A program made the position numbers and the translations under genes. Below are positions 12,654 to 30,038 of a DNA stretch of 64,000 bases, piece after piece (within the stretch, counting starts at the first letter, position 1; each line of letters opens with the position of its first letter). The notes beneath the pieces were generated by a model that saw nothing but the letters and a program-made list of their open reading frames with translations, did not search any database and was not told the DNA's origin. The stretch lies in NCBI RefSeq assembly GCF_048403405.1, contig NZ_CP183129.1. One strand, given 5' to 3'. Source of the stretch: Escherichia coli (GTDB lineage: Bacteria > Pseudomonadota > Gammaproteobacteria > Enterobacterales > Enterobacteriaceae).

Positions 12654-15206
12654 TTATTTACCTAGCATGAACTGCGATGGTGGGATCAGAAAGTCGTTAC
12701 CCTGCTCACGCTCAACACGGCGCTGATAACGCTCAAGAGAGCCTGGGTCAAGGGCATCTTGTATCCTGTTCAATATTAAACCATTCATCGCCGTACGAAG
12801 CCAGAACACGTTGAGGAATGGCGTATTGTCAAGTGCCGTGCGATACCAGTCACCCAAATCTGCATCCCCTCTCGTGGTCTGCTGGAGCAGCGTGATAATG
12901 CTGTCAGCGTTCGATGCTGCCGGTCCCATTAGCGACGTAACCGGCCCGGCCCCCATGCGGTTGACCTCGCCAAACATGAAGTCACCCAAGATGCCAAGAC
13001 CGCCCCCCTGAGATGCGGCTGCGAGAAACGTCTTGGCATCTGCCGGGCGTGGTGTTTGCCCTTTCAGCATGAGTTTTGACTGCATGGAGATATAACCAAA
13101 CATAGTCGCCCAGACAAAGAGGTTTGCAGCACCAAGGAAAGCCCCCTTCCCGTTACGTAGCAGCGCATTCGTCAGCGATCCGGTTTTCGACTCACCAAGC
13201 CCAGCAGGAATATAACCACGCCCGAATACTTCGCGTCCTAGTACGTTCTGCATGAAGCTTGCAGTGAACGATTTGTATTGACCAGCGAATCGTATTGCTT
13301 CCCCAGCCACCGTTCCTGGCACCGTGCCCATCTTCATAAACGCCTGCGTGCGATCGCCAGGCTCTGACATGGCGATATTCAGGCGGTCAAGGATGTAGCC
13401 GCGCAACTGCCCTTCCAATTGATCGCGTGCGTCAGCGATAGCGCGCTGCGTTGGCTTGATCCCCTTACTCTCTACATAACCGGCAATCACTTCGTCAGGC
13501 ACGCCGCGGATGCCGCTGGTCGTCATGAACTTACGACCTTCGCTATCGGCCATGTCCATGTTGCGAAAAATTTCCCACTCACGTTCGCCAATACCGTGCA
13601 GATCCAGCACGCGTCGCAGGTCTTCCGGTAGCCGCGCATGAGGCTGGTCAGCATTCTTTGCAAGCCAGTTGGTTATCATCATGGCGTTGCTGTTGCGACC
13701 GCTCTCGGTCCAGAAGTTCATGAGGTTGTACTTAAAGAAAAGCTGCTGCGCGCGACCAAGTTTTCCATTCAGCGTGTCATCACCAGATATGCGCCGGATG
13801 ATTTCCTGCGTCATGGAGTCGGAATAAACTCCGATAGAGGAAAGGATCTCTTTCTGCTCCGCGCTGTTGTAACGCGTGAAGCGGCCTCTCATAGCACCAA
13901 GCAACGCCTGCATAAAATTCTGCCCTTGGTAGCGCATCTCGGTAGCGGCGATAGGCACGTCGTTAAACGATGAGATTACCGCGCCACCAAGCTGGCTCAT
14001 ACGCAACCAGCCGCGTACAGCCGCCGACGCATTGGCCCAGCCTACGCTGCCAGGAATATTTAGCGAGCCGTCAACCTGCGGCATTACGGTACGGTTAATG
14101 CGACGCACCTTCGTCATGTAGTCAGCCAACGCTGCCGGTCTTCCGGATTTGCTGATATCTTCAGCAATGGTGTCCGTCAGGTACTTAAACATGTTCTGTG
14201 GGTTAGTGCCCAGTACGCGCATCATGCCCGTTGTGCGGGCAGCGCTGTTTAAGCCACCAAACAGCGCCTCTCGCAGGCTGCCAGTGCCGAATTGCTGGTT
14301 GTACTCGTGCCACGAGATACCATCTTTGAAGTGCAAAATTCGCTCTTGGCTGGCGCGTTTAGCTGCGTTCGCCGATCCCTTAAAGCCATTCATCCAATCT
14401 GGCTTTTCAGATGTAAGATGCACGCCGGAAGCCAGCCCGTTATAAATGTTACGCATGAACTGCTCGCGGTCAGCCACGCCGTCAAAAGTGCGCTCATCAA
14501 GGCGCGGGAGAATAGCATTTCGCCATGCTTCATAACCTGCGGCGCGGATCTTCATGATGTCGTGTGACTGGCGCACTATATAGCCCGGCTCTTTGCGTAT
14601 CCATGCCCCGGCGCGGTTCTCATCAATGCGCGCAGTTTCCTGCCATTTCATGATGATTTGTGCAGCGCTTACGGATTGCTTTGTCATACCGTCAGTTGAC
14701 TGCCCGCGCCCTATGCGCCACATTGCATCGGCAATTTCCCTGTCATTGCTGCCGCTGGCGATGAATTGCACCAGCCCGGCACGGTCAAAATCGTAGTTGA
14801 TACCGGAATGATACTTGCCGTGCAGTTGCGCCACCTCCGAAGATACCGACCGGCGGGCGCCGGTACGCGCATCGTTGCGGCCAACCAGCATTGCTTCAAG
14901 CCCGATATCCGGGCGGTCTTTCCAGATAGTACGAAGCTCTCTAAGTCGTTGTGCGGCAATACGGGTGTTGATTGCCTTATTGCGAGCCTCAATCTGTTTT
15001 GCCAGCATATCGGCATTGCTCAGTTCTTCCGCTGCGCGCATCGCGGCCTCTTCCAGAGACAGCGCCTCATTGGTCGCCAGAATTCGCCTAGTGGTGTCGT
15101 TCATGTCACGCACCAGCGACTCCATCTCATCGGAAGAAAGCTCGCGACCAGCGGCAGCATTTACACTGCGCTCGCACTGCGTCAAAAATTCGTTTGCTGC
15201 CATCAC
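12654..15206 (-). CDS. large hypothetical protein (850 aa), third gene of a tightly packed giant-ORF block; possible phage internal-virion/ejection-type protein
   Basis: Long uninterrupted ORF, 4-nt overlap with upstream gene; no domain recognised by eye. Confidence 0.65.
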   Translation of the reverse strand: MMAANEFLTQCERSVNAAAGRELSSDEMESLVRDMNDTTRRILATNEALSLEEAAMRAAEELSNADMLAKQIEARNKAINTRIAAQRLRELRTIWKDRPDIGLEAMLVGRNDARTGARRSVSSEVAQLHGKYHSGINYDFDRAGLVQFIASGSNDREIADAMWRIGRGQSTDGMTKQSVSAAQIIMKWQETARIDENRAGAWIRKEPGYIVRQSHDIMKIRAAGYEAWRNAILPRLDERTFDGVADREQFMRNIYNGLASGVHLTSEKPDWMNGFKGSANAAKRASQERILHFKDGISWHEYNQQFGTGSLREALFGGLNSAARTTGMMRVLGTNPQNMFKYLTDTIAEDISKSGRPAALADYMTKVRRINRTVMPQVDGSLNIPGSVGWANASAAVRGWLRMSQLGGAVISSFNDVPIAATEMRYQGQNFMQALLGAMRGRFTRYNSAEQKEILSSIGVYSDSMTQEIIRRISGDDTLNGKLGRAQQLFFKYNLMNFWTESGRNSNAMMITNWLAKNADQPHARLPEDLRRVLDLHGIGEREWEIFRNMDMADSEGRKFMTTSGIRGVPDEVIAGYVESKGIKPTQRAIADARDQLEGQLRGYILDRLNIAMSEPGDRTQAFMKMGTVPGTVAGEAIRFAGQYKSFTASFMQNVLGREVFGRGYIPAGLGESKTGSLTNALLRNGKGAFLGAANLFVWATMFGYISMQSKLMLKGQTPRPADAKTFLAAASQGGGLGILGDFMFGEVNRMGAGPVTSLMGPAASNADSIITLLQQTTRGDADLGDWYRTALDNTPFLNVFWLRTAMNGLILNRIQDALDPGSLERYQRRVEREQGNDFLIPPSQFMLGK

Positions 15207-16900
15207 ATCCCCCGGTTAATCATACAGGCGGCAAATGCCCGGAAAGCGTTGCTCATGCTATTGTCGCTGGCGTCGGCACGAATATCATTGAGTTTCTGGC
15301 GCAACGTGGTCGCAAGATCAGGGTTATCGACAGCGATATCGTCAAGCAGGGCGTTACTCAGGTTGAGCTCGTTATCAAGGTCTGCAGCGGCAGCGGTAAT
15401 TTCATGATCTGCCTTTTGCGTTTCTTGATAAACCCGATCGGCTGTTTCGCTTGCTGGGCGAGCCGTTTCATCAACCTGCCGTGCCGGATTCTGTATGCGA
15501 TGGATGGCGCGTTCACGCAGTGCCGGTTTGTGCAGTTCATAGAAGGGCTCAACATCTGGGCTACGTCCTTCCATCATGTGTGCCAGCGCAGCGCGATACG
15601 CCTGCTGGTTCACGCTCCAGTCAGCATCCCTGATGGCGCTTGCGGCAGTGCGAACTGCGCCAGCGACCGGCGACATCTGCATGCCGTCCAGGATCTGCTG
15701 CGCACGCTCGGAAATGGTGACTTTCAGGTCGTCGGGGATCTCGCCGCGGGAAATCTGAGACTGGCGCCAGCGCGCCTGCTCTGCTGTCGCGTTCTGCTCC
15801 AGCGATGTGTTGATCTCCTGATTGCGTGCAGCGATGGCGTCTTTCTCGGCCTGAATCTCTTTCAGTGCCCTAGAGCGCGCATCCTTAAACTTCATCCGCT
15901 TCCCCTGATACTTTTTGGTGCGCTGTTGCAGCGTCGCATCAAGCGAGTCAGCATGACGTTGATTAGCCGCAAGCTCGGCACGCAGGTCGGCAACGTTACC
16001 GATCTGCCCGCTCTGTAACTCCTGCTGGCGCGCCATATAGTCAGGAACCACGTCGTCATAAGCCCGGCTGTATGCGTAGCTCTCCGCTTCACTGGAAATG
16101 GCCGCCGCCAGATCTGCGTTAGCGCCAACCTCAGGGATATTCACGCCCGCCGGAATGTTGTCAGGCGTTATCACCGGGGTTGGCTGCGCATCGCCAGAAA
16201 ACTCCGGGGACTCTCCCGTTGCAGCATCGGGAACGCGACGCGGTCGCACGATATCGGCGATAAGGCCGCCGCCGGCATGCATTAGACCGCCAGCCATCGT
16301 GTTAAAGAAAGTACTTTCCAACGCGTTGCTATAGGTGAAGTCGTCACCTTCCGCCGCCGCTGCCAGCCCGGTAAGCGGCACGGTCACCACCGCCTGCGCT
16401 GCCCCCATGCGTGCACCAGCAACAAATCGCTCGCCAAATCGGCCAAGCACAGAAGCTGCCTTTGCTTCTCCAGCGAACGGAACCAGCGCCAGCGCCACGT
16501 TACCAGGATCTGCCATTGAACCAGCTAGGCTGGCTGCGAAATTAAGCGGCGTGGCTACCCACCCGCTCGGTGCCGACATCGCAATCTGCTGGCGTGCCAG
16601 AGAATCTTTGCGTTCGGCAATAACATGATCGAGAAAAGCCTGCGTAACGCCAGAATCTGGCACGTTTATGCTCTTTACGCCGTACTGCTTCAGGAGCTCA
16701 TCTGCGTCCTGCTTACTGATAACTGTAGAGTTTGGGTCATTCGCCAGCGAGTCGGCCTGCGCAAAGCGGTAGCCGGACATGACCGGCCCCTCTTCAAATC
16801 CCTGCTTAAGGGAAGAAAGCAGCGATTCGCCAAGCCCTGCTGGCGCGTTGCCAATTGGCTGGTTAATGCCCTGTCCCGGATCATCTGTGTAAATTGGCAT
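15203..16900 (-). CDS. large Ala/Gly-rich hypothetical protein (565 aa), second gene of the giant-ORF block
   Basis: Long ORF with hydrophobic Ala/Gly-rich segments and a coiled-coil-like C-terminal half; packed against flanking genes. Confidence 0.65.
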   Translation of the reverse strand: MPIYTDDPGQGINQPIGNAPAGLGESLLSSLKQGFEEGPVMSGYRFAQADSLANDPNSTVISKQDADELLKQYGVKSINVPDSGVTQAFLDHVIAERKDSLARQQIAMSAPSGWVATPLNFAASLAGSMADPGNVALALVPFAGEAKAASVLGRFGERFVAGARMGAAQAVVTVPLTGLAAAAEGDDFTYSNALESTFFNTMAGGLMHAGGGLIADIVRPRRVPDAATGESPEFSGDAQPTPVITPDNIPAGVNIPEVGANADLAAAISSEAESYAYSRAYDDVVPDYMARQQELQSGQIGNVADLRAELAANQRHADSLDATLQQRTKKYQGKRMKFKDARSRALKEIQAEKDAIAARNQEINTSLEQNATAEQARWRQSQISRGEIPDDLKVTISERAQQILDGMQMSPVAGAVRTAASAIRDADWSVNQQAYRAALAHMMEGRSPDVEPFYELHKPALRERAIHRIQNPARQVDETARPASETADRVYQETQKADHEITAAAADLDNELNLSNALLDDIAVDNPDLATTLRQKLNDIRADASDNSMSNAFRAFAACMINRGM

Positions 16901-16901
16901 G

Positions 16902-19523
16902 TTATCGTCCTGATTGCTGGCCGTTCTGGAAAATGTTAATCAGGTTGTCGCGCTGACTTTCTGCGCTGTATTCCTTAGACTGTCCGGGAGTATATTTCAC
17001 CGGAGTATCAATGAACTTGGTAATGCTGTTCCATACTGATCGGTTGGTTGTTCCCAGTTTCGCCAGATCGTTGAACGGCACCGTAATCGGGTTGCCGTCG
17101 GCACCGTTGACGATCAGCCCGTTGAGCATCAGGGTAAGTCCTGTTTCGTCGCTGTTGGTAACCCACTGCGCATTATCACGAATGCGGGAGATACTCTGCT
17201 CACGGTTGACCTCATCAGGTAGCCTTGGGTCACCAATAAGCGGCATAATCTGATCTGCTGACAGGTTTTTCAGATACGCATTGGCACCATCGTTAACGTC
17301 ACGAATATCTATCCCTGCACGCTTAGGTAGCCGCCAAGTGCCATTGGTCTGATACTGCTCGCCGAGGATGTCCTGATACGCCTGTTTTGCTGCATCAGAC
17401 GCCGACATTCCGCGCTGCATGTTGATGTAAGTAAGTCGTTTTCCCTGCTCGTTGAAGTTATTCCACACGGCAGTGCCACCAGGCTGAACAACCATCGTGC
17501 CAGCAAAATCTTTCGATTGGTCATTCCATGACGAGTCGGCGCTATCCGCGTCGGTTTTCTCAAGACTGCCGCGTAAGTCAGCAGTTTTAACGCTACGGTT
17601 TTGCCAGAGCGCATTTGCCGCGCGCGGGTTCTCGGTAGCCATGACAACCTGCAACGCAGGATAAGCGCTCTTCTGAACCTGCTGCATCACCTGATCCGAG
17701 TATTTTCCGAACGACTGCGCCACCGACTGAATGGCCTTTACGCTAGATTCCTGCGTGTTGTCAATACGCTGCAGTACGTCGTTGACCATGGACTCCGGTA
17801 AAACTTTTTTGCTCATTATCCCCAGGCGGTCTTTTTCAGACTGTATGCGGGAAACTAGGTATTCACCAGATGAAGGGTCATTGAGGTACTGCTGGAATGC
17901 AGCCTGCACAACCGGAGAGTTTTGTTGCAGCCATGCCCCCGGATCCGCTTCCCGCGCCTTCAGTACCTGCCCAAGCTTGACCTTTGCCGATGCATAAAGC
18001 TCGGCTTTGTATTTAAAGTCAGGGTCGTTTTCCTGCGGTGCCATTGCCTGCACGGCGGCGGTACCCTGCTGGACGTTGCCCTGCATGATGGTCTGATAAA
18101 CAGGTTGTAGCGTCATTGCCTGCTGGTATTGCTGGAAGGTTTTTTCCATCTGCAGGCGCTCGGCAGGCGCTGCCTGAAGCGGCATAACGGCGGCCCATTC
18201 GTGCGCTGAAATAGGCGTCACCTGCTTACCGGCCTCAATTTTGGATAGGTCGTCCTGCATTCGACTCTGTAGCGCAACGCGACCGGCTGAAGCCTGCATG
18301 TCGTACATGCCAGCAACCTTGCTCATCATCTGCGACTTTTTGTCCGGACTCATGGCGTTCCAGAATGGCTGTGCGATGAGGTTTTCCATCGTCGCAGATC
18401 CAGGAATAGCTCCAGCACTGCCAGTTACTTTTGCCACATAATTGCGCGTCTCGTCGTATGGGATAGCTGCGGCAAACTGGGCGTTACTGACTTCGCCTGT
18501 GCGCGGATCGCCAATCTGTTTAATCCAGCCGTCAACCTTTCCTGGGCCAGCGTTATAGGCAGCTACTGCCAGAACCGGGTTATTGTCGTATTTCTTCATC
18601 TGCGCGCCGAAATAAGCTTGCCCCAAGCGGGCATTATAGCGCGGGTCATTCAACCATTTATCTCGGTCCCACGGCACACCAGCAAGGCGGGCAGCTTCGG
18701 GGCCAGTATCTTCCGTCACCTGCGCTACGCCAACAGCGCCTTTTGGCGACACCAGAGGTGTTCCGTCCTTTCCGTACTGATTTCCGCCACTCTCCTGCCA
18801 GATTATTGCAGAGAATAACTGCGCCTCACTCGGTGTATCGGTTACCTCAATCTTGCCGTTCGGCCCCATCATCTGTTGATACATCGGCACATACCACGCC
18901 TCCGCCGCACCGTTCGCGGCATTCTCGCGCCACGAAACCCAGTTCTGTTCGATCTCTTCCTGACTCTGGCCGTGTGCTTCGCCGTAAGCGATGATGCTAT
19001 GATATGCCTTCAATCCTGCCTGGTTTGCCATTGTCGGGTTACGGAACTGCATCGATAGGTTTTTTAGTGTCGCATCCTGCATATCCGCCTCATACTGGCG
19101 AACCTGTCCTATTTCGTACCTCCCAGCCTGCGTAGTGAACTGAATGCGCTGCTGCTGCGCCTGCTGCATGAAAGCATTACGAGCCTGTTCATCCGGCAGC
19201 GACATAGCCAGTTGTTCGACCTGAGCATCAAACTGCTGCGTATACTCCTGACCTTTTCCAATAGCATTTTTCCCTTTCAGGTTAAGCAAACCTGTTTCAG
19301 GGTTATTCAGCAGATCGCTGCCTGTCTGACTGAGTTTAAGGGATGCCTCCTGAACCAAGGCAATATTGGCACGCTGTTTTGCCTGACCCAGAACATCAAT
19401 TGCCTCTGCTCCTGCACGAACAAAAGCATCACTAATACCTGGCTGAGAAAACGTCTGCAAGCCTGCTGACTGAACTCCACGGCTCTCAACCTGACGTCCG
19501 GATACTGTTGGTACGACTGGCAT
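16902..19523 (-). CDS. large protein (873 aa) with internal soluble lytic transglycosylase (SLT) domain
   Basis: SLT catalytic motifs in the translation: ...IIWQESGGNQYG...VGVAQV...AYNAGPGKVDGW; remainder Gln-rich. Confidence 0.75.
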   Translation of the reverse strand: MPVVPTVSGRQVESRGVQSAGLQTFSQPGISDAFVRAGAEAIDVLGQAKQRANIALVQEASLKLSQTGSDLLNNPETGLLNLKGKNAIGKGQEYTQQFDAQVEQLAMSLPDEQARNAFMQQAQQQRIQFTTQAGRYEIGQVRQYEADMQDATLKNLSMQFRNPTMANQAGLKAYHSIIAYGEAHGQSQEEIEQNWVSWRENAANGAAEAWYVPMYQQMMGPNGKIEVTDTPSEAQLFSAIIWQESGGNQYGKDGTPLVSPKGAVGVAQVTEDTGPEAARLAGVPWDRDKWLNDPRYNARLGQAYFGAQMKKYDNNPVLAVAAYNAGPGKVDGWIKQIGDPRTGEVSNAQFAAAIPYDETRNYVAKVTGSAGAIPGSATMENLIAQPFWNAMSPDKKSQMMSKVAGMYDMQASAGRVALQSRMQDDLSKIEAGKQVTPISAHEWAAVMPLQAAPAERLQMEKTFQQYQQAMTLQPVYQTIMQGNVQQGTAAVQAMAPQENDPDFKYKAELYASAKVKLGQVLKAREADPGAWLQQNSPVVQAAFQQYLNDPSSGEYLVSRIQSEKDRLGIMSKKVLPESMVNDVLQRIDNTQESSVKAIQSVAQSFGKYSDQVMQQVQKSAYPALQVVMATENPRAANALWQNRSVKTADLRGSLEKTDADSADSSWNDQSKDFAGTMVVQPGGTAVWNNFNEQGKRLTYINMQRGMSASDAAKQAYQDILGEQYQTNGTWRLPKRAGIDIRDVNDGANAYLKNLSADQIMPLIGDPRLPDEVNREQSISRIRDNAQWVTNSDETGLTLMLNGLIVNGADGNPITVPFNDLAKLGTTNRSVWNSITKFIDTPVKYTPGQSKEYSAESQRDNLINIFQNGQQSGR

Positions 19524-19619
19524 TAGTAACCTCCTATTTTGAATCGGGAGTCAGAATTCATAAAACCTGAGTTAGATAACATTGGCGTCCCTCTGCTTTG
19601 ATGCTGTACCAGCGATTCA

Positions 19620-19826
19620 TTACTCACCCCCCGATGCAAAACCATTCTGATTAAGCCAGGCGTTTACGGCATGTCTGACAATCTGCGCCACGCCTGGTAA
19701 TGGCTGATCAGGGTGATTGTTCACATGGTCGATTCTGTACTGCTTAATGCGCATCACGGTCTGTGCATCCAGATGAACGGAACCACCTCTGACATCGCCT
19801 GTGTTCAGGTCGTTAATACAATTCAC
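19620..19826 (-). CDS. small hypothetical protein (68 aa)
   Basis: ORF directly upstream of the giant-ORF block on the same strand; no recognisable motif. Confidence 0.4.
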   Translation of the reverse strand: MNCINDLNTGDVRGGSVHLDAQTVMRIKQYRIDHVNNHPDQPLPGVAQIVRHAVNAWLNQNGFASGGE

Positions 19827-20192
19827 AGCAATTTCCTCTTACTGACTAAACTATGCACATTATTGATCTGAAAAAGTGGTAGATAAACATATTTCTATCA
19901 CAAAAACAGATTGATTGATTTCAGCCCCAAAAAAAGCCGGATTGCTCCGGCTCTGTGCTTACTTCTGGTAGTTACGCCATACTGATTTCCCGATCCCATC
20001 TATCCCCATTTCTTTTTCAGTGCGTTTAAGCGACCGTTTCAGGTCTTCTAAATTATCCGGTTGCTTCGGTGGCCTCTGTGCCTTCCTGGAACATTCCAGT
20101 CGTCGCATTGATATGTAATACCGTTCCTTATCAGTTTCCCAACTGCATTACTTCACCCCATCGCGCCGCCGCTCTTCGGTACAGGGTTTTAG

Positions 20193-20609
20193 TTAGCCTC
20201 CGACTCTTCCGTAGCGCTGTTCTGGTGGATTCACATAGCCCCTTTCTTGCAGGTATTCGCGAATATCAGACATCAGGAGACGGTTAACCGTGCTCTTGTC
20301 TTTTCTCCGGTAAAGGCGTCTGGTGATCATGAAGTAGTTAGCAATGACCTCCGGTATATCCCTGACGCTGATACATGCTGTATGCTGGTCAATAGCTTCA
20401 ATCATCTCTTCACGAGTTACAAAAGTCTGGCGTAAACGAGTGATCACACCATGTACATCTGAACGATCATTTATACGCTTATTTTGGCGCTTCGCGCTCT
20501 CGACTGTGACACTGACAATAATGTCAACTCTTTGTTTTTCCGCCATTTCATCCACAATGTGATCACCTGCACGGCGACCATGTGCGTGATCATTTCTTAC
20601 TATTTCCAT
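20193..20609 (-). CDS. hypothetical protein (138 aa)
   Basis: ORF overlapping the end of the FinO/ProQ-like gene by 20 nt on the same strand; basic, possibly nucleic-acid binding. Confidence 0.5.
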
Positions 20610-21087
20610 TCATCTCCTCCAGTAGTTTTCCTGCGTGCGTCTGTTGTAGTGGTGTTACCTCGCCGCACGGCTGGCCTTTCAGGTCGTAACGCGCGCCACC
20701 AGCTACCAGGGCGCGGTAATAGCGCGGAGTCTGCACATAACGCGCCAGCGTTGCGCGTAGTGTTCCCTGTCCGAGTGAAATACCTCTCGCGGCAATATCC
20801 TGTATCAGGTCGTCAAATATCCCCACCTTAAGCGGCTTAGGTGATTCCGGGCTGAATAATTCAGGCCATAGCTCAATAAGACGGTTAACGCGTCTGCGGT
20901 TTTTACGCTGCTGTTTGGTCATACGCCGCCGCGGTGTTGCTCCTGTGAGCTTCTGCTGTGTGTTCTGGTTATCTGGCATCACTTTATGCGCCGATGTGGT
21001 TTTATTCTGCTGCTGCGCCGCCTGTGCTGTTTTCTGCGGCGTGCCGTAAATGCCCTTCGGTTTTCTGTTTATGGTCAGCTTTGTCAT
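20590..21087 (-). CDS. FinO/ProQ-domain RNA-binding protein
   Basis: Central region ...[76 protein letters not shown]... resembles the ProQ/FinO N-terminal domain; basic N-terminal tail. Confidence 0.75.
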
Positions 21088-21123
21088 GCCTTCCCCTGTA
21101 ATTACTCTGTTCGCTGTTGTGAA

Positions 21124-21546
21124 TTAAAACGGTATCCCGTCCCCGTACGGATCGTCGTTACCCGCCTGTTGTTTTGCCCTGTTCAGTGCGTCAGTAGCCT
21201 GCCCTTGCTGGCCTTTTTTGCCGCCCGGTCGCGCCGTTCTCGCACTGATTACGCTGTCTGCGATAACCTGCCAGCCCTGCCGCGTTTCGCCGTTCTGGCC
21301 TGTCCACTGGCTTACCTGCATGTTACCCGCCACGCTCACCAGTTCGCCTTTGTGGTGTTTTGCCAGTGCGTCGGCCTGTCTGCCAAACGCCAGGACGGAT
21401 AACCACATCGTCGCCGTTCCGTCATCTGCCTGATTGCATGGAAGGGGGACCGCCATACTCGCCATCGCCATTTGTGTGCCCTTGCTGGTGGTCTTTAACT
21501 GCGGGTCAGCCACCAGCCGCCCGTAAGCTGATATTTGCGCCGTCAT
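21124..21546 (-). CDS. single-stranded DNA-binding protein (SSB-like OB fold)
   Basis: OB-fold pattern (AYGRLVADPQL...W...FGRQAD...KGELVSVAGNMQVSQW) and acidic C-terminal tail ending DGIPF, as in the SSB DIPF tip. Confidence 0.7.
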   Translation of the reverse strand: MTAQISAYGRLVADPQLKTTSKGTQMAMASMAVPLPCNQADDGTATMWLSVLAFGRQADALAKHHKGELVSVAGNMQVSQWTGQNGETRQGWQVIADSVISARTARPGGKKGQQGQATDALNRAKQQAGNDDPYGDGIPF

Positions 21547-21589
21547 GCTGTTTGTTCTCCGGTTTTAACGTGATAGTTACGCTTGTTTA

Positions 21590-21740
21590 CACTCTTACAG
21601 TGAAATTTTGCGGGTTACAATCGCACATTTGCGGGTTATAACTGCCGTTTTGCGGGTTACGTGCGGGTTATTGATTTCCTTTTTAATCATGCAGTTAATT
21701 AACTTATGCACAGGATAACCCGCATAACCCGCAACTTTTT
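21590..21740. repeat. iteron-type candidate origin of replication, directly 3' of the primase/helicase gene
   Basis: ttgcgggtta x4 (21603-21670), AT-rich spacer, then inverted taacccgca x2 (21715-21735). Confidence 0.6.
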
Positions 21741-21756
21741 ACCTCACACAGGGAAG

Positions 21757-23883
21757 TTAATCTTCTGCTTCAGGCTGGAACATCAGCACGTAAAAAATAT
21801 GCTGCTTCCCGCCAATCCTGCCGAGCGCCTTTTTCTTGTAACGGCGGTCGCCTCCCGCTTCCAGCATTCCGGCAGCACTCAACGCGCGGGCAAAGTGAGA
21901 CGGATTAAATCCCTGTGCTATCTCACCCTCAAACACATGCGGGAACGTGTAAAAACGGAACTCGTCATCTTCGTTTCTGATACTCCCCTTTCTGTATCCG
22001 GCAAGGTCTTTAATCGGTAAATCACGCTCGTCGCTGTTTGGATAGGGAAGGTATCGACTGAACCCGAACGACGACAAAAACGCCTCAGCCTGTTCAACCA
22101 TCTGTTTAAATTCCCTGTTGCCCGTGCCGAATTCCTTCACCCAGGCATTAAAGTTATGCTGAACTGCATCACGGCACGCCTGAACATCCCAGCCTGTAAC
22201 ATGACCGGAAAGCACAAGCGCGGCCTCCAGTACGGCGAATCTTTCCCCCACACGGTGAACCTGCTCGCCGTAGCTCTCCGGTATCAGGTTGCGCCACCGC
22301 TCGCGACATGCCCTTACCGCGTCCTTTGCCTCCTGCTGGTGACCTGCCAGCCATTTAACCCACTCACGACCTGCCGCCCCGTGATTTTCTGTCCAGGCAT
22401 CTTTTAACGCGTCTGCGTGCGCCTTTCCGGTGCTGTATTCGTGAAACTGCGATGCCTTTTCCATCGGCACGTTAAGCAGACGGACAAGCTGCCCCGCTTT
22501 AATTTTTATCCCTTCCGTTTTGAGGAATGTTTCAACGTCCATTTCTCCGGTGCTGATTGCCACCGTGCGCCAGTGTTTTATCTCCCTGTTGCCGCCGTCC
22601 TTCGCCCCCTGTAATTTCCCGGAACCGTTAAACAGCGTATAGGCTGACGTGGACACCTCCCGCGCGTTTCCGGCCTGGCCTATTTCATCCAGGGGTAACA
22701 GCCCGTCATTATGTGCTTCGGCCTCGTTGGCGATACCTAACGCCGTTCCGTACCAGGTCAGCCGTTGCGCGTCCGGCTCTCCCCATAAACTTGATGCAAT
22801 GTTCTGTGTGGTGGTTTTACCTGCTGATGATTGCTCAAAAAGATGAACCCCGAAGCCGTCAGCACCCACCAGCCCGATTAATGGTGCGGATAGCGATACC
22901 GCCACACCCAGCATCATGGACGGATTACCACCAGCCAGCCGTGCCACGGTATCGCGCCAGCCCTCCGCTGTTCCCGCCACGGAATAGCCATTAACAGCGG
23001 CAGTTTTTCCGGTAAACAGGATGGGTTTCTCTGATTCACCAATGACCGAACCATCCGGCATGATGTACGCACCAAAATGCCACCCCGTTGTTGTGCTTAA
23101 CTGCCATTCCTCATGGTTTCCGCTTAACTGCATCCAGTCAGCCAGGATAGCCCTGTATTTGCCGTTGGTCGTCACGTTAAGGCCGTGGTCTTTCAGCAAC
23201 CGCCAGCCGTCACGGTCACCAATGCCTCCGCACGGGACCGCCATTGTAATGACCTCATGGTTTGCTGGTTTTTTCCAGCGCATCACGCGGTAATGCTCTT
23301 TGCCGATTGTTCCTGTTCCCAGTAGTTCAAGCGGAGAACATAACCACGTCTCAGGCCGGATAATTTCGCCTGACTGCTTGTCCACTTTGGGCGTTACCCA
23401 GAAAACACCATCGACGCGACTTTCAACACGAGGCTTTAATTCGTCATCATAATTTCCGGTGAAATTTGTCTTCGCCGGAAGGTTGATCACCAGACTGTTA
23501 CCGCGTTCCGCATCATCCTTCAGTCCAGCCATGCGCGGTGTCCAGTCCTCCGGCTGCTGATCAACAAAGCTGCGGTAGCAACGCGCCTCCTTCACACCCG
23601 CCACTGCAAGCAGTGTCGCTATCTGTGTAAGGTGCTGCTCTGATATTTCACCAGCACGATAAACGCGCACGTAATAGCGCCCTTTGTCGATGATTTGCGT
23701 GTCTGCCAGACTCGCCAGTTGTTCCGGTCCAAGAATAACTGGATGTGTATCATCTGCCGCAATATGCTTTCCGGCCCATTCGCTCCACTCTTTCGCATGT
23801 GCCCAGGCATCACTACCCGCAAAGATAATCACCTCCGTCATTTTGTCTTTCGGCTGGTGCTTTAAATTCGGTGCGCGTTTCAT
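21757..23883 (-). CDS. primase/helicase-type replication initiator (P-loop NTPase, P4-alpha/DUF927-like)
   Basis: 708-aa ORF with Walker A-like FEQSSAGKTTT; followed by iteron ori as in satellite rep genes. Confidence 0.7.
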   Translation of the reverse strand: MKRAPNLKHQPKDKMTEVIIFAGSDAWAHAKEWSEWAGKHIAADDTHPVILGPEQLASLADTQIIDKGRYYVRVYRAGEISEQHLTQIATLLAVAGVKEARCYRSFVDQQPEDWTPRMAGLKDDAERGNSLVINLPAKTNFTGNYDDELKPRVESRVDGVFWVTPKVDKQSGEIIRPETWLCSPLELLGTGTIGKEHYRVMRWKKPANHEVITMAVPCGGIGDRDGWRLLKDHGLNVTTNGKYRAILADWMQLSGNHEEWQLSTTTGWHFGAYIMPDGSVIGESEKPILFTGKTAAVNGYSVAGTAEGWRDTVARLAGGNPSMMLGVAVSLSAPLIGLVGADGFGVHLFEQSSAGKTTTQNIASSLWGEPDAQRLTWYGTALGIANEAEAHNDGLLPLDEIGQAGNAREVSTSAYTLFNGSGKLQGAKDGGNREIKHWRTVAISTGEMDVETFLKTEGIKIKAGQLVRLLNVPMEKASQFHEYSTGKAHADALKDAWTENHGAAGREWVKWLAGHQQEAKDAVRACRERWRNLIPESYGEQVHRVGERFAVLEAALVLSGHVTGWDVQACRDAVQHNFNAWVKEFGTGNREFKQMVEQAEAFLSSFGFSRYLPYPNSDERDLPIKDLAGYRKGSIRNEDDEFRFYTFPHVFEGEIAQGFNPSHFARALSAAGMLEAGGDRRYKKKALGRIGGKQHIFYVLMFQPEAED

Positions 23884-24182
23884 TTCTTGCCCCTGAATGC
23901 GTTAATCATGTTCTTTATTACCTGAATATTTGCCCGTGCTTTCTCTTTACTGGTGGGCTTACTGCGTGGTACTGCACATACCAGTGAAAAATCACGCCGG
24001 AACTGATGAACGGGCATCACACAGTCATAGTCGTACCCTGCGCGGCGGTATGTAATGTGCCGTTCATACACGGAATTAATAACCACGCTGTCACCATATT
24101 TATCCCGGAAAATATCCCCGATCCTGATTTTCGGGTGAGTCTGTCCGCTGGCATTTAAGCCAGTAAATTTAATCTTCTTCAT
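23880..24182 (-). CDS. hypothetical protein (100 aa)
   Basis: ORF overlapping primase/helicase start by 4 nt. Confidence 0.5.
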   Translation of the reverse strand: MKKIKFTGLNASGQTHPKIRIGDIFRDKYGDSVVINSVYERHITYRRAGYDYDCVMPVHQFRRDFSLVCAVPRSKPTSKEKARANIQVIKNMINAFRGKK

Positions 24183-24184
24183 GT

Positions 24185-24442
24185 TTATTTCCCGGTGTGA
24201 GGTTCTTCTTTATATTTATGGGCTAACAAATCTGGTAATTGCCTGTATTTATCCTCGGCAATATATTCAGAATAATCGACAGCACTGTTCAGTATATCTA
24301 ACGCCGTTTCATGCTCCAGATTCGAAACTATAAGGAACGTTGCTACTTTTAGCATATTCGCGATATGCAAAAGAGCATCAATTTCATTTTTTGGCGCTTC
24401 ACTGAATTTTTGCTCCAGAAGAATAAATCGTTCATCACGCAT
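24185..24442 (-). CDS. hypothetical protein (85 aa)
   Basis: ORF in the same operon orientation, 2 bp from downstream gene. Confidence 0.5.
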   Translation of the reverse strand: MRDERFILLEQKFSEAPKNEIDALLHIANMLKVATFLIVSNLEHETALDILNSAVDYSEYIAEDKYRQLPDLLAHKYKEEPHTGK

Positions 24443-24638
24443 AGTATTCCCCCTGACGGATGCGGGCAGTAAATACCATCACGCAGCCAGCCGGGGATTG
24501 CTGACGGGCTTCCTGTTCGCTGGCGGCCTCGATGTGTATTACGCGTGGTTGTGCGGTGCTCAGGGCGATAAAACGCCAGATGTATTTATTCAGGTTGTGC
24601 GAGTCCCGCCCTTGCGGGTGTGTGGTATGATTTAACAT
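24435..24638 (-). CDS. small protein (67 aa); possibly an Icd-like cell-division-inhibitor type protein
   Basis: C-terminal 67 codons of the 345-aa ORF have normal composition and overlap the next gene by 8 nt; the rest of that ORF looks like antisense artefact. Confidence 0.35.
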   Translation of the reverse strand: MLNHTTHPQGRDSHNLNKYIWRFIALSTAQPRVIHIEAASEQEARQQSPAGCVMVFTARIRQGEYYA

Positions 24639-24699
24639 AGCTACCTCGATACGCTTTCTATCGTTGGTGGTTAGACGCCCTGCATGTGTTGCGAGCACT

Positions 24700-24795
24700 G
24701 CGGGGCGTTGCTTAATTTGAGCAATGCAACCCAAACTGTGCGCACAGATTAAAATCATGTGTGCGCACATGTCAATACTTAACTTCTCACTTTTT
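24700..24795. promoter_or_regulatory. candidate operator/promoter region with TGTGCGCACA-type palindromes
   Basis: ctgtgcgcacag, tgtgtgcgcacatg and tgtgtgcgcccatc within ~90 bp, upstream of the + strand small gene at 24844. Confidence 0.4.
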
Positions 24796-24843
24796 TTGCT
24801 GTATTGTGTGCGCCCATCAAATCCATTTAAGTGAGGTGTACCA

Positions 24844-25041
24844 ATGTCTAGCGGAAACACAAACAACAAATCAGCAAAGAAAAATATTCGATTCCCGCAC
24901 GAGCTTATAGATGGGATTGATGCCAGTGTTGAACAAGAAAAATTAACTAATCCTAGTGCTAATTTTTCCGCATGGGTCTTAGATGCCTGTGGACGCAAAT
25001 TAAAATATGAACAGCGCCGGAAGGCCAAAGAGCAGGAGTAA
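24844..25041 (+). CDS. small DNA-binding protein, possibly ribbon-helix-helix
   Basis: 65-aa ORF with RHH-like segment IRFPHELIDGIDASV; C-terminus ...RRKAKEQE. Confidence 0.45.
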   Translation: MSSGNTNNKSAKKNIRFPHELIDGIDASVEQEKLTNPSANFSAWVLDACGRKLKYEQRRKAKEQE

Positions 25042-25098
25042 CCATCACCAGCGCCGTGGTGCGGTGAACTGTGGCGCACAGGGTTACAGGTATCTACG

Positions 25099-25296
25099 AT
25101 GACTGACAAATCATTAAAGAAATTATCCTCATCCAGGAAAAAACAACGCAAAAATGCGGTAAGCGAACAAGAACAGGAAAGATTTGCGCCATGTGCGTTT
25201 GTCCTTGAGAAGTTCTTAAAAGAGTACAGGCGCACAAAAATGGGATCGCATACCTGGAAAACATCGCAGTATGGCGATGCTAAAGAGCAGGAATAG
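25099..25296 (+). CDS. small basic protein (65 aa), shares C-terminal motif with upstream gene
   Basis: C-terminus ...YGDAKEQE repeats the AKEQE ending of the 24844 gene. Confidence 0.4.
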   Translation: MTDKSLKKLSSSRKKQRKNAVSEQEQERFAPCAFVLEKFLKEYRRTKMGSHTWKTSQYGDAKEQE

Positions 25297-25464
25297 CCCA
25301 CCAGCAAGCCAGCACACTGATCACATTGCCCACCAGCCGCAAATCTGGCATTGTTGGCGATGCGTTTGATTTCCTTTGTTCCCACTGGCGACCTATCCCG
25401 GTCGCCTTTGTTTTGCCTGTTATCCAGCAACGGGGCGCTTTTTCTTTCTGTAACGTTCGGATCG

Positions 25465-26208
25465 TTACGCATGGCTGCTCACCTCCATGCGGCGGGCTAA
25501 CCAGCGTTGCGAAAGACGAATTAATTCAGCTTTCCGCTGGTGGTAGTCCTGGCCTAACTCAATCAGCGTGATATTGCTCTGCTCAAGGTAAGAAAGGTGC
25601 TCAAGCTGCAGCGTGCTCATGTGGTCGCGTGGTTCGCCTGTGATGCCGTTCGCCTGCGCCCACTGTTTTGCAGTCATGCCACCCAGCACGATACGCGCCA
25701 GCATATTGGCTTCCGTGGTGTAGTGGTGCTGGAGCGTGTTTTTACCCAGTTCAGCGCGGTACGCCTCCAGCGCGGCACACATCGGCTTAAAGTAGCTGGC
25801 AACGGTGATACGGGCTTTCAGTTCACGGCGTAACGCTGCGGAACGCACTGGCGCTACTTTGTGTAGCTCCTCCTCGCATTTGATGAAGTACTGACGAATA
25901 GCGCGGCCCTGTTCGGTACGCTCGACCATCGCAAGTTCTTTCGCCATGTTGATGGTACTCAGGTAGTCGTGCTCTACACGTTGGCGAGATTTTGCGCTCA
26001 CCGGATTGGGGGAGGTCAAATTTTCTACAAACTCAAAATCCACGCCATTTTTAAATCCGTACTGATCAATACGCCCTTTAATCCATGTAGTGAAATCACG
26101 CTTCACACCAAGCGCCTTATGTAACGCTCTGGCGCTGACAATGGCTGTTTCATGTCCGCCAATAATGCCAGGTGATACCGGAATAAGTGCGGCGAAATCC
26201 TTAAGCAT
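25465..26208 (-). CDS. phage antirepressor-like protein (KilAC/Ant-type)
   Basis: 247-aa ORF whose C-terminal half resembles KilA-C antirepressor domains; position between Rha-like and replication genes. Confidence 0.6.
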   Translation of the reverse strand: MLKDFAALIPVSPGIIGGHETAIVSARALHKALGVKRDFTTWIKGRIDQYGFKNGVDFEFVENLTSPNPVSAKSRQRVEHDYLSTINMAKELAMVERTEQGRAIRQYFIKCEEELHKVAPVRSAALRRELKARITVASYFKPMCAALEAYRAELGKNTLQHHYTTEANMLARIVLGGMTAKQWAQANGITGEPRDHMSTLQLEHLSYLEQSNITLIELGQDYHQRKAELIRLSQRWLARRMEVSSHA

Positions 26209-26899
26209 GATTTACCCCCAGATACGGCTCAGATGTCATCAGGCTGGCGAATGTCTCCATGCGTCGGGCAACCTCCCGCACTGCTTCGGTAGGTGTCATG
26301 CCGTTCTGTATCGCCTCCTCAAATGCGGCCTGTTCGATTTTCTGCATGACAATCAGCAAGCCTAACTGCTGCTCGCTGGCTGTGCCTCGTTCGCCAGTTA
26401 CCAGACCTGTAACACGGTTCTCTGCGCGTGCCAGATTGATGTAATGGTGACGTTCTGCGCCCAGTGCTTTAAGCCCGTCACGGCTTTCGTGATAGCCTGG
26501 CAGATATTCACGGCGTACAGGCTCGGTAGCGCGATGTTTTGCGAATGCCTTCGTAACATCCAGCTTGAAGCGGTTCATGCGTTCATCATCACGACCGCGC
26601 ACAATGCGACACATGTAATCAAACTGATCGCTATTCAGGAGGGCAAACTTATGTTCACGCTCCCCGTTTTGACGGGTTTTTAATCGCTCCGTTTGAAACG
26701 GAAGGATGCCCAGTTCACGCAATCCGGTTTTGTGCTTCTGAATGAGCGAATAAAGGTTTTTGTGCTTTATGCCAATACGCTCAGCAAATAAGCGGGAATC
26801 AATGCGCGACTCCGCTTTGTGGCGAACCAGAATATCGCTCATGCTGGTTTCAGGCCGAACGAAGCCCTGCCCCTGTACGGGCGTTTTTCGCAGTTTCAT
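26201..26899 (-). CDS. phage regulatory protein, Rha-like
   Basis: N-terminal segment ...RIDSRLFAERIGIKHKNLYSLIQKH... resembles Rha/ORF6N regulators. Confidence 0.55.
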   Translation of the reverse strand: MKLRKTPVQGQGFVRPETSMSDILVRHKAESRIDSRLFAERIGIKHKNLYSLIQKHKTGLRELGILPFQTERLKTRQNGEREHKFALLNSDQFDYMCRIVRGRDDERMNRFKLDVTKAFAKHRATEPVRREYLPGYHESRDGLKALGAERHHYINLARAENRVTGLVTGERGTASEQQLGLLIVMQKIEQAAFEEAIQNGMTPTEAVREVARRMETFASLMTSEPYLGVNHA

Positions 26900-26973
26900 A
26901 AAAACACCTGCTATTAAATTAAGTTACTTTTGTTTGCTGGTGGGGTTGAACGTCATCCCCCGTAGTCATTTAA

Positions 26974-27192
26974 TCAGGCTGATGTGTTTCGGCGTTCTGC
27001 CAGCCAGTTATTAATTTCCACCGCATCAAACGCAGTCACGTTATCTGTTAGCTTCACTGGGCGTGGAAGAGTGCCATTTTTAACCCATCTATCAATAGTA
27101 GGCAGTGAAACACCTAGCAATTCCGGCATGCGAAAGCGACGGATGTATCCAGTTGTTGGGATAGCTGATGATGCTGGCTTGTGTGCTGTCAT
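26974..27192 (-). CDS. alpA: AlpA-family transcriptional regulator (excisionase-like)
   Basis: 72-aa product with HTH ...MPELLGVSLPTIDRWVKNGTLPRPVKL...EINNWL; next to integrase as in P4-like islands. Confidence 0.75.
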   Translation of the reverse strand: MTAHKPASSAIPTTGYIRRFRMPELLGVSLPTIDRWVKNGTLPRPVKLTDNVTAFDAVEINNWLAERRNTSA

Positions 27193-27663
27193 ATCTCTAG
27201 TAACCTCTCTGATAGCTCATGAAGTTACTTAAAGTTTAGTGGTTGCCCATACAGTATTTCTATTAAGACTAGAATCTATTGAAAGAAATTATAAATCTAT
27301 TGAAAAAATACCGATCCACTGAAAGATTGCAAATGCAAGTGGGATAATTATTTTCTTTATTTTCAATTAGTTACCAGTTTAAAAAATCATTGTTTTATCA
27401 AAGAGTTATATCTTTCATCGTCATTCATCATGTTTTTACATTTCCTTTTATCTTTTATTATTCAATTGGTTGAGTCGGTTTATAATGGCTCATGATGGCT
27501 TAAAATGGCTAATGATAGCTGGCGTATCTTTTAGAGATGGGGTGATTACAGATGAACTAAGCCGAACAGATATAGCAATGGCTAGGCATAGAATTATCTA
27601 TGCTGGTGGAGATGGGTAAACAGGTAATGCCCCGCCATTGCTTTGGAGGGGCGTGAAAAGTGA

Positions 27664-28314
27664 TTAGTCGAGATCGTGGACAGCTAATAAAGCCCGTGAG
27701 ATTTTTTCTAGGAATGTGGCTTTTGCTATTCCTTTATGGGATATCCCTTCATCCTTGATTAAGGTTTCTATGTCACGGTATATAGCTGTGCGATTAGGTT
27801 TCCCATTTTGGATGTAGGAAGATGAGCCTGATTTTTTTATCAGCAGATGTACTATCAACCCCATCATTTTCATTGTCCCGTTTTCCTCATCCTGCTTTCT
27901 ATGCTGCCCACGTCCGCTGCGGTTGGTTTCTTTGATGTAGTTTACTAACTGGAGTCCTCCAAGGTTTCGGGCTTTTTCTTCCCAGCCCTTGGTGCCACGC
28001 AAATCATCAATCGCTTCTGATATTTTCTGAACAATTATTTCTGGTGTATTTGTGTCAATAAATGGGTAAGAAGCTAAGAAAATATCAAGGGCATGGCAAG
28101 GCTCGTCTTTACTAGTTTTTTCACCTCTGTACACCTTGATAGCTCTGGCAAGATGAGTTCTGACAAAATCGACATATTCGAAATTTTCCTCAGGCACATC
28201 GCTAATGCGCATAGATGGGTTTAGGCCAGCCAAGGCCACAGCCATTTCATGAGGGGTAATCGATACAGATGAACAAAGCCGTTCGATTGGCGATTTTCTC
28301 AAGATGTTGTTCAC
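27664..28314 (-). CDS. hypothetical protein (216 aa) in the int-alpA variable slot
   Basis: ORF overlapping int stop by 4 nt; AT-rich; no recognisable motif. Confidence 0.6.
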   Translation of the reverse strand: MNNILRKSPIERLCSSVSITPHEMAVALAGLNPSMRISDVPEENFEYVDFVRTHLARAIKVYRGEKTSKDEPCHALDIFLASYPFIDTNTPEIIVQKISEAIDDLRGTKGWEEKARNLGGLQLVNYIKETNRSGRGQHRKQDEENGTMKMMGLIVHLLIKKSGSSSYIQNGKPNRTAIYRDIETLIKDEGISHKGIAKATFLEKISRALLAVHDLD

Positions 28315-29579
28315 ATTTGCCTCCGGGCTTTATCGAATGGCGTTACGTTGTAGTCTTTCCCGCTTTCCAGTGCCACCAGCAGATCAGCCCACTGTGCCAG
28401 CGCAGCTTTACGCTCATCAAAATACTGATGGCGGTTATAAATCCCCTCCACACCCTTAATGCGATGATTGAGGCATCGTTCCGCTACGACAGGATCAACA
28501 CCCAATGCTGCTAAATGAGTACGTGCGGTACGCCGGAAGTCGTGAATCGTGAAATTAGGCACATCCGGCATTTCGGCGCGAACCTTAGCCAGTGCTACGG
28601 GTAAAGTGCTTTCCTGAATATGTGGGATCATTCTGTTTTGCATCTTCCTGGCTGGAAGCACCCATGCGCTATTACATGAAAAGGTGTGTAGCTCTCTCAA
28701 CCATTCAACGGCAGGAGAAGGTAGAGGTATATCAATAGGGTCTCCGTTTTTGCTGCGTTCTTCCGGCAAATGCCATACCGCACCATCTAAATCAAACTCT
28801 TCCCATCGTGCGGCGCATAACTCCATCTTACGAACGCATAGTGCCAGCAATAGCTTAAATGTCAGTTCGTTCTGGCGGCTGAATCCTTTTGCGGTGCGCA
28901 TAGCCTCGAATAGCCTGATAAGCTCATCGCGAGTTAGCCAACGGTCGCGGGAAACCTCTTTACCACCAGCATCAGATACTTCAAACGCTGAACAAGGGTT
29001 TATCTCCAGAGCGTGGCGTTTTATCCCATAGTCAAAGATACGGCGTGTCCAGCGTAATACATCTGTTGCTATCGTTGGTGCTCCTCGGTCAACGATACCT
29101 TTCAACATGTCGTCAATGTGGCGTGGCTTAACGTCCTCTACCTTCATATGCCCAATGCAGGGGTTAATATCCTTATCAATTCTCCGGCGAAGGATATCGG
29201 GATGTTTCCATCTCGGAAGTATCTGTCGCTCGAAGTATTCGGCGGCCAGATCTGAAACGCGCATGGCGTTTTTCTCAGCCTCCATTTTTGCCAGTGCTTC
29301 AGCTTTTCGTTCCTGTTTTTCTGCTGCTACGTCATAGCCAAGAGCAACTCTGGCTGACAGCTCTTTTGCTATTTCTCTGGCTTTTGATAGTGACAGTTCG
29401 GAGTAAGAGCCGATAACCATAGCCCGCTGTTTTCCTGCGAGCTTATATCGGAATCGCCAGAACGGGACTGTGTAGTTTTTGGGGTAGCAAATATAAAGGC
29501 CGTTGCCGTCTGCCTTGCCATCAAATCTGTCTCCCGCCTTTATCCATGCGCGGATCTGCATATCTGTGAGTTTTGGCAT
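28311..29579 (-). CDS. int: tyrosine recombinase/integrase, P4-type
   Basis: C-terminal catalytic region ...HDFRRTARTHL...NHRIKGVEGIYNRHQYFDERK...; start taken at MPKLTDMQIRAWIKAG (ORF track extends to 29663). Confidence 0.9.
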   Translation of the reverse strand: MPKLTDMQIRAWIKAGDRFDGKADGNGLYICYPKNYTVPFWRFRYKLAGKQRAMVIGSYSELSLSKAREIAKELSARVALGYDVAAEKQERKAEALAKMEAEKNAMRVSDLAAEYFERQILPRWKHPDILRRRIDKDINPCIGHMKVEDVKPRHIDDMLKGIVDRGAPTIATDVLRWTRRIFDYGIKRHALEINPCSAFEVSDAGGKEVSRDRWLTRDELIRLFEAMRTAKGFSRQNELTFKLLLALCVRKMELCAARWEEFDLDGAVWHLPEERSKNGDPIDIPLPSPAVEWLRELHTFSCNSAWVLPARKMQNRMIPHIQESTLPVALAKVRAEMPDVPNFTIHDFRRTARTHLAALGVDPVVAERCLNHRIKGVEGIYNRHQYFDERKAALAQWADLLVALESGKDYNVTPFDKARRQM

Positions 29580-29635
29580 TGCGAATACCTGAATATCGAA
29601 TATGGGTGTGTACATAAAGCAATGTACATGAAAGT

Positions 29636-29660
29636 CATTATGTACACCTCTATGTACACG
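29636..29660. repeat. 25-bp repeat with TGTACA(C/T) motifs (right copy), upstream of int
   Basis: Four TGTACA(C/T) motifs between 29608 and 29660; 22/25 match to 10823-10847. Confidence 0.5.
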
Positions 29661-29704
29661 CATATTGTGCGCTTTGTTGCGTCGTTATGATAGCTCATGA
29701 TAAC

Positions 29705-29732
29705 AAAAAAGCCCGACATTTCGCGGGCTTTA
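29705..29732. terminator. GC-stem hairpin with flanking T-runs, possibly a bidirectional terminator
   Basis: aaaaaagcccgacatttcgcgggcttta followed by tggttttttg. Confidence 0.45.
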
Positions 29733-30038
29733 TGGTTTTTTGCTGCTTGGTGATTTTTGCTGATAGCTTATTCGATATTCTGAACATGAACCCGAATCTG
29801 CATCAAGGGTGAAGCGTGATTTATCTGAAGTCGAGTTCGAGTCAACAATGAAACGTAAGCGTTTTATGTAGAACGCCTGTGCGGTGAACTCAGGTTCCGG
29901 GGAAATAGTGTCCATCATTTTAATGGACACTATCATGGGAAATGGCTCTGTCACATCAACAACTACAGTTGCTGACCAGCCGGATGGATGATTTTTTCGC
30001 AACCAGAAGACGTTGCCTCCGATCCGGCTTACAACAAG

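Follow-up and report, generated by a model that had tools for sequence, protein, structure and literature searches.

Among bacterial RNA chaperones, FinO/ProQ proteins form a major class; those encoded on mobile elements, FinO and FopA, each control a decisive antisense circuit. FinO is encoded by F-like plasmids (PF04352; PDB 1DVO), whereas ProQ (PDB 5NB9) is a chromosomal global RNA chaperone. FopA, named for its occurrence 'on plasmid/phage', chaperones the Inc antisense RNA onto the repZ mRNA, and FinO-domain genes on plasmids and phages are recognised (review PMC9977716). In Legionella, the chromosomally encoded RocC (PDB 7RGU, in complex with a terminator) regulates competence and acts with the small RNA RocR. 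Here, we describe a FinO-domain gene, called finO below, in a 64,000-nucleotide stretch of an Escherichia coli chromosome (NCBI RefSeq assembly GCF_048403405.1, contig NZ_CP183129.1), which in its entirety is called the window. The gene and its neighbours make up the distal part of the early (replication) operon in a phage satellite of the phage-inducible chromosomal island (PICI) type. Members of a distinct FinO-domain clade are encoded in the early operons of PICI and capsid-forming-PICI satellites, and finO is an accessory gene in a variable slot after the replication origin.

The satellite protein shares with FinO the domain and fold, a basic N-terminal extension and a location on a mobile element. 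Their identity is only about 29%, and in place of a conjugative plasmid the host is a satellite with neither tra genes nor a FinP/traJ pair. ProQ is the best sequence match, at about 40% identity. In contrast to ProQ, the satellite protein ends after the FinO domain, without the linker and the Tudor-like C-terminal domain, and carries a basic N-terminal tail instead. It resembles FopA, compared by description: both are small, combine a FinO domain with an N-terminal region of their own and are encoded on a mobile element near replication functions; however, an antisense system of the Inc/repZ type was not found here. RocC is a structural match, and its mode of binding the terminator hairpin and 3' end is the basis of the mechanism proposed below. 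Unlike RocC, the satellite protein has no known small RNA comparable to RocR. A ProQ/FinO-like gene has been noted in vibrio satellite-plasmids (PMC13230959), and FinO-domain genes are annotated in phage records (Sodalis phiSG1, Aeromonas BUCT695, Shewanella KASIA and Cronobacter JK004). These are elements of other kinds, and their products are 31-45% identical to the satellite protein over half of its length. The searchable PICI literature, including PMC11773190 and PMC6092414, mentions no FinO/ProQ gene.

The assignment to the FinO/ProQ family, made at first from the letters of the sequence, is upheld by profile search, fold and pocket residues. Pfam PF04352 matches with E=1.6e-23 (residues 64-162 on model positions 5-102 of 109). 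Sequence matches in PDB are the ProQ N-terminal domain (2e-14), FinO (4e-11), NMB1681 and RocC. In a Foldseek comparison with PDB, all 27 of the 27 matches with E<0.1 are FinO, NMB1681, RocC or ProQ structures, at probabilities of 0.94-1.00. The AlphaFold model, built with 18 homologues, has a predicted local distance difference test score (pLDDT) of 65-86 in the FinO domain. The protein consists of a basic disordered N-terminus (residues 1-57) and the FinO domain (58-164), without a C-terminal domain; its N-terminal 62 residues have a pI of 11.9 and are predicted to be disordered. ProQ residues K35, R58, R69, Y70 and R80 align to K87, R111, R122, Y123 and R133. Residues of this type form the RNA 3'-end pocket and the basic face in ProQ and RocC. 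Among 18 diverse homologues, K87, Y123, R133 and D135 never vary and R122 is conserved to at least 90%; across the family, the equivalents of ProQ K35, R69, Y70, R80 and D82 show little or no variation. The protein nevertheless scores below the cut-offs of both named subfamilies: 55.7 bits against 136 for FinO sensu stricto (NF010317) and 57.5 bits against 127 for the ProQ equivalog (NF003434). By these scores, it belongs to a clade apart from FinO proper and ProQ.

Homologues of finO are common in E. coli. At the DNA level they were found in at least 1077 of 5426 complete genomes (at least 20%), with up to 9 per genome; all are chromosomal, and RefSeq names their products 'ProQ/FINO family protein'. 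Protein relatives reach Salmonella, Citrobacter and Shigella. In a first sample of 83 loci, which was fetched via FinO and hence biased towards it, finO always follows one of three unrelated replicases (D5_N/DUF5906, DUF927 or AAA_25), lies within 360-1757 nt downstream of the replicase gene, and is followed by PerC or by the capsid-portal-terminase block of capsid-forming PICIs. From these loci finO had been taken for a core backbone gene. Because of the bias, a second set of satellites was collected with a 17-nt motif from the operon leader as the probe; it comprised 96 loci, 94 of them distinct. FinO is encoded in 23 of the 94 distinct loci (24%; 23/96 in all), and a single-stranded-DNA-binding protein (SSB) in 74 of 94 (79%). 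SSB is present in 12 of the 23 FinO-positive loci (52%) as against 62 of the 71 FinO-negative ones (87%), a negative association with an odds ratio of 0.16 (p=9e-4, relatedness uncorrected). Since only 24% of related satellites carry finO, and since it is negatively associated with SSB, the gene is accessory, and the core-gene view was dropped. The same association rules out SSB and FinO as a functional pair.

These counts also bear on two other explanations of the gene. One holds that the protein is a replication accessory factor that cooperates with SSB at the origin, where primer RNA or R-loops could be its substrates. The location of finO within 360-1757 nt of replicases of three unrelated families in the FinO-selected loci is in its favour, as is co-transcription with the primase and SSB genes. 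However, finO is negatively associated with ssb and missing from 76% of sister replicons, and known FinO domains are binders of structured RNA 3' ends, not replication factors, so that a replication role seems quite improbable. The second explanation is that finO is a decaying or functionless passenger. The adjoining perC gene is indeed frameshifted, and finO is dispensable in most sister elements. Against this, the gene occurs as 55 distinct intact alleles that vary at synonymous sites yet share 30 invariant residues clustered in the FinO domain, and its reading frame and ribosome-binding site are intact in the window. We consider a passenger gene to be very improbable.

The operon is one run of minus-strand genes at 19.5-24.7 kb, in the order icd-like gene, 85-aa open reading frame (ORF), DUF4222 gene, DUF927 gene, a gap of 210 nt, ssb, finO, a 138-aa ORF and perC; all lie in the same direction and at the coordinates first given (Table 1). 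The initial annotation had placed the SSB and FinO/ProQ genes directly downstream of an origin in the same direction, followed by two small basic ORFs, and this layout is confirmed. The origin lies in the gap and consists of four plus-strand copies of TGCGGGTTA phased at 21 nt, an AT-rich stretch and two inverted copies. The window contains 13 exact copies of TGCGGGTTA, compared with 0.55 expected by chance. The PICI origin described by Fillol-Salom et al. (PMC6092414) has the same arrangement of iterons around an AT-rich stretch. The two basic ORFs are the 138-aa ORF and the frameshifted perC, of which a fragment of 49 aa has a pI of 10.2; perC is intact in most sister elements. The unit has a single strong terminator on the sense strand. 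In most related loci, too, the FinO unit is followed by a short GC hairpin and U6-8, and the stems show compensatory changes. A second TGCGGGTTA array was observed in the 1.3-kb non-coding left end of the element (11229-11382): two adjacent copies, an AT-rich stretch and three copies with 21-nt phasing, in the opposite orientation to the origin at 21.6 kb. On a circular form it would fall roughly opposite that origin. It may be a second origin, serve in handcuffing, or be a remnant.

The DUF4222 gene probably belongs to the RgdR family. RgdR, which regulates type III secretion and motility and has 99 aa and a pI of 10 (PMC3378721), is reported to be encoded by every analysed E. coli PICI; the two were set together by description only, and size, pI and position fit. 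RgdR was also considered as the FinO-domain protein and ruled out, its 99 aa and pI of 10 fitting the DUF4222 gene instead.

Transcription of the run appears to start upstream of icd, at a near-consensus promoter (TTGACA, 16 nt, TTTAAT) in a divergent control region with palindromic operators of the TGTGCGCACA type. From one element lineage to another the operator repeats vary but the promoter stays in place, and the lineage-specific repeats look like immunity types. The divergent YlcI/YnfO unit, which is kept in 56 of 84 loci, is presumed to be the satellite repressor unit. The operators lie over a strong promoter, so the operon, finO included, would be repressed when the satellite is integrated and expressed on induction.

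Between the promoter and the icd start lies a structured leader with hairpin 1 (24675-24708), the motif TCTAACCACCAA and hairpin 2 (24647-24663), the last of these by the ribosome-binding site. In alignment A3, 89% of cells are paired as against 26-42% in slid controls, nine pairs are changed on both sides, and the observed covariation values were reached in none of 500 shuffles. The leader is unannotated and was seen in at least 65 fetched satellite loci and at least 120 IMG/VR contigs. Its identification as a C4 RNA was ruled out, as it has no Rfam match and the P1 c4 region is unrelated. Rfam searches of the whole element at E<=1, and of 19.4-21.8 and 24.3-25.6 kb at E<=10, returned chance-level matches only. 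Some sister satellites carry C4 and IsrK RNA genes in their 'Ash' region and one has an int-alpA RNA; the window element is without them. The TRAPP paper and a literature search on IsrK and ProQ yielded nothing that bears on this element.

Gene identities, fold, pocket residues, operon layout, terminators and the distribution of finO are observed; from these we infer RNA binding, RNA clients, timing of expression and a regulatory effect for the FinO-domain protein as follows. Tentatively, we favour a FinO-type protein that binds 3'-tailed hairpins and has satellite transcripts as its targets. The operator-overlapped promoter would drive transcription from icd through the perC pseudogene, ending at one terminator. 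SSB would coat satellite single-stranded DNA during replication, and its IPF tip could recruit host SSB partners. The FinO-domain protein would be an optional accessory RNA binder, most likely with a mode of action like that of FinO, FopA, RocC and ProQ. The foot of a terminator-type hairpin, together with its 3' U-tail, would be held in the Tyr123/Arg133 pocket, and the N-terminus, very basic and disordered, would shield the RNA and accelerate pairing between RNAs. The candidate ligands are the operon terminator, the tandem terminators of the YlcI/YnfO unit and the icd leader; the preferred clients would be the 3' ends of the operon itself (19929-19951) and of the divergent repressor unit (25387-25437). 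Read-through from the upstream antirepressor operon would be antisense to that unit, and is possible in that a terminator scan of the minus strand found none from the stop codon of antA/B to the icd promoter. Being made only after derepression, FinO might reinforce the switch or stabilise early mRNA.

Several points weigh against a satellite-directed hairpin binder. No RNA partner was found for the protein, and terminator hairpins are generic, such that any intrinsic terminator fits equally well. Of the sister satellites with this leader, repressor unit and operon, 76% lack FinO. The three candidate RNAs are thus present in FinO-less satellites as well, so none of them requires FinO. Expression only after induction is deduced from the promoter and operator layout, and the structure model is of moderate confidence (whole-protein mean pLDDT 62).

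An elaboration of this proposal is a satellite-specific RNA-chaperone layer: the protein, made on derepression, would pair a read-through antisense transcript with the repressor mRNA, or capture helper or host RNAs of the ProQ type, and so lock in lytic commitment. We regard the elaborated version as unlikely. If it were true, it would be the first post-transcriptional chaperone circuit described for a phage satellite, and would explain the extra ProQ-like genes in a fifth of E. coli genomes. An antisense circuit within the region itself, for which the initial annotation had proposed a search of 19.5-21.6 kb, did not emerge, as the antisense strand there has no convincing promoter or terminator. 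An antisense RNA inside ssb and finO was rejected: the promoter scan gave 2 sites compared with 6.8 in shuffled sequence, and plus-strand terminator-like sites are weak and unconserved. Synonymous diversity along finO runs from 0.085 to 0.27 with no trough. The Rfam, promoter, terminator and synonymous-site results thus lend no evidence to the control of copy number or of lysis-lysogeny-type decisions by a small RNA, which the initial annotation had suggested as one role.

The protein could instead be directed at the host, as a ProQ paralogue that binds host small RNAs and mRNA 3' ends and rewires the ProQ regulon or competes with it. Its roughly 40% identity to the ProQ N-terminal domain with pocket residues kept is consistent with this, and the PerC (PMC11773190) and RgdR/DUF4222 (PMC3378721) families, whose genes flank it, alter host gene expression. 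A gene that is optional yet common, in at least 1077 of 5426 genomes and in up to 9 copies, would also suit such a role. However, the operon seems to be repressed in the integrated state, judging from the operators over its strong promoter, the coding strand has no promoter-like site between the origin and finO, and no host phenotype is known. A host-directed regulator is accordingly a doubtful alternative. Should satellite, helper or host RNAs be bound, the protein would extend the satellite-helper conflict to the post-transcriptional level, and it could then also perturb the ProQ regulon in pathogenic strains.

Whether a helper phage might be the target is a question raised by the gene next to finO. 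The 138-aa ORF has no Pfam match and is confined to this element's own lineage. Its residues 7-68 are 61-69% identical to an internal fragment of P1 PacA (PacA residues ~68-129), and residues 59-138 are 50-74% identical to the Ant1-specific N-terminus. The ORF thus reads as a chimera of the two. In one punavirus pacAB and icd-ant adjoin, so a single deletion could yield such a chimera. The PacA-like part brings with it a homologue of the P1 pac site, which in P1 lies inside pacA; the homologue keeps 4 of 7 TGATCA/G hexamers and matches 'Pac1' of a punavirus at the DNA level. This pac-like DNA suggests a P1-like helper, which would either package the element or be subject to interference from it.

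In keeping with that, the FinO-domain protein might target helper-phage RNAs, such as antisense or immunity RNAs or terminator-ended late transcripts, either to interfere with the helper or to exploit it. The slot downstream of the PICI origin holds interference and packaging genes (PMC6092414), finO is optional and variable as interference genes are, the neighbouring ORF is built from P1 sequence that includes a pac homologue, and FinO/ProQ proteins bind phage-derived RNAs (review PMC9977716). On the other hand, no helper phage was identified for the element, and the occurrence of FinO in both PICI and capsid-forming PICI satellites, whose morphogenesis modules differ, argues against one helper target. 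We think helper RNAs improbable as clients, and return to the satellite's own transcripts as the preferred reading.

The SSB gene had been described as plasmid-style, and with the core-gene view of finO this is the second misreading that is corrected here. The protein reaches 61 bits with TIGR00621 (cut-off 53.95) and 1e-39 with phrog_44, but only 24.8 bits against a cut-off of 260 with the model for SSB of the E. coli and F-plasmid type (NF006533/PRK09010). E. coli SSB (1EQQ) matches it at only about E=4.8e-5. Identity to phage records is at most 31%, and only about ten plasmid records contain close relatives, at 50-70% identity. It belongs to a divergent clade specific to these satellites. 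Its C-terminus reads DDPYGDGIPF. A tip of the ...DGIPF type is how E. coli SSB recruits partner proteins.

Table 1. Coordinates of the satellite and its features in the window.
Feature	Position	Strand	Basis
Whole 19-kb PICI-type phage satellite (by gene content), between LRR-protein gene and dadX	10756..29785	.	Empty sites, junctions
Junctions of the element	10740-10770 and 29770-29790	.	Comparison of att sites
Intrinsic terminator GCCGGAGCAATCCGGC + U7, operon end, candidate FinO ligand	19929..19951	-	Sequence and terminator scan
PerC-family regulator gene, frameshifted pseudogene	~19959..20184	-	RefSeq annotation of identical sequence; tblastn with intact PerC
138-aa basic ORF, pI 9.45, overlapping the finO stop codon	20193..20609	-	tblastn against phages; phrog_1711, phrog_63
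Phage P1 pac-site homologue, 81% identity	20436..20596	-	Alignment with 5' part of P1 pacA
FinO/ProQ-domain protein (putative RNA binder), 165 aa, pI 10.65	20590..21087	-	PF04352, PDB matches, Foldseek
Single-stranded-DNA-binding protein, 140 aa, of a divergent satellite-associated clade	21124..21546	-	TIGR00621, phrog_44
Replication origin, 4 phased + 2 inverted TGCGGGTTA iterons around AT-rich stretch	21607..21733	.	Repeat layout
DUF927 primase-helicase, replication initiator, 708 aa	21757..23883	-	phrog_1139 2e-174; RefSeq annotation
DUF4222 protein, 100 aa, pI 10.2	23880..24182	-	Annotation, pI
Icd-like gene, first of operon	24435..24638	-	RefSeq annotation; phrog_6196
Structured 5' leader of icd, 74 nt, two hairpins	24639..24712	-	Covariation
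Divergent control region, TGTGCGCACA-type palindromic operators over leftward promoter	24737..24816	.	Sequence
YlcI/YnfO-family gene + 65-aa gene, tandem terminators 25387-25437	24844..25437	+	Annotation, phrog_949, phrog_21027
Sister-satellite RNA sites (fetched loci)	L004 956-1141; L006 4083-4310, 1374-1441; L048 2185-2370		

The host element is chromosomal, mobile and phage-related, as the initial annotation had it, and can now be placed as a PICI-type satellite, not a generic prophage. This placement follows gene content and architecture. PICIs as described in PMC6092414 have an integrase, a master regulator, and a primase/initiator followed by an origin with two iteron sets around an AT-rich stretch. 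Integrase, master regulator, initiator and origin are all present at 10756-29785. PICIs are further described as about 15 kb long, without structural or lysis genes; this element measures 19 kb and encodes three ejection proteins, as does the proven PICI EcCIMP1 (PMC11773190), in which podovirus ejection proteins likewise lie downstream of the DUF927 primase. In common with PICIs including EcCIMP1, it has the integrase, AlpA-type regulator, antirepressor, Icd, DUF4222, primase, iteron origin and PerC. Unlike the window element, EcCIMP1 has neither SSB nor FinO and has a C4-like leader.

The gene inventory comprises a tyrosine integrase, an AlpA/excisionase-like helix-turn-helix protein, antirepressor-type genes of the Rha and AntA/B families, the divergent YlcI/YnfO-family unit, the early operon, a 68-aa gene, the three ejection proteins and a secreted 186-aa protein. 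The element encodes no capsid, portal, terminase, tail or lysis proteins, no conjugation genes, and no defence systems matched by PADLOC.

Strains with an empty site lack the 10756-29785 segment and have an 8-bp core, ATTCTGAA. Other strains have the same element (99.9% identity) between dinD and yicC. The presence of one element at two sites, together with the empty site elsewhere, indicates recent movement by integrase action; the two attachment (att) sites and the P1 pac homologue are at most indirect evidence on helper-dependent excision, replication and packaging. The other strains (loci L003 and L090) have the same integrase, with the element at the 3' end of yicC and a 21-bp att repeat. 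The site next to dadX in the window is a secondary one; only the 8-bp core is common to both sites, and attL has lost 2 bp.

The three large internal-virion/ejection proteins are encoded at 12654-19523 and have lengths of 873 aa (with an SLT domain), 565 aa and 850 aa. The N-terminus of the first is 66% identical to those of phages of the phiV10/epsilon15 type. A 73-bp segment upstream of the ejection genes corresponds to the 3' end of a phage EC.W1-9 structural gene.

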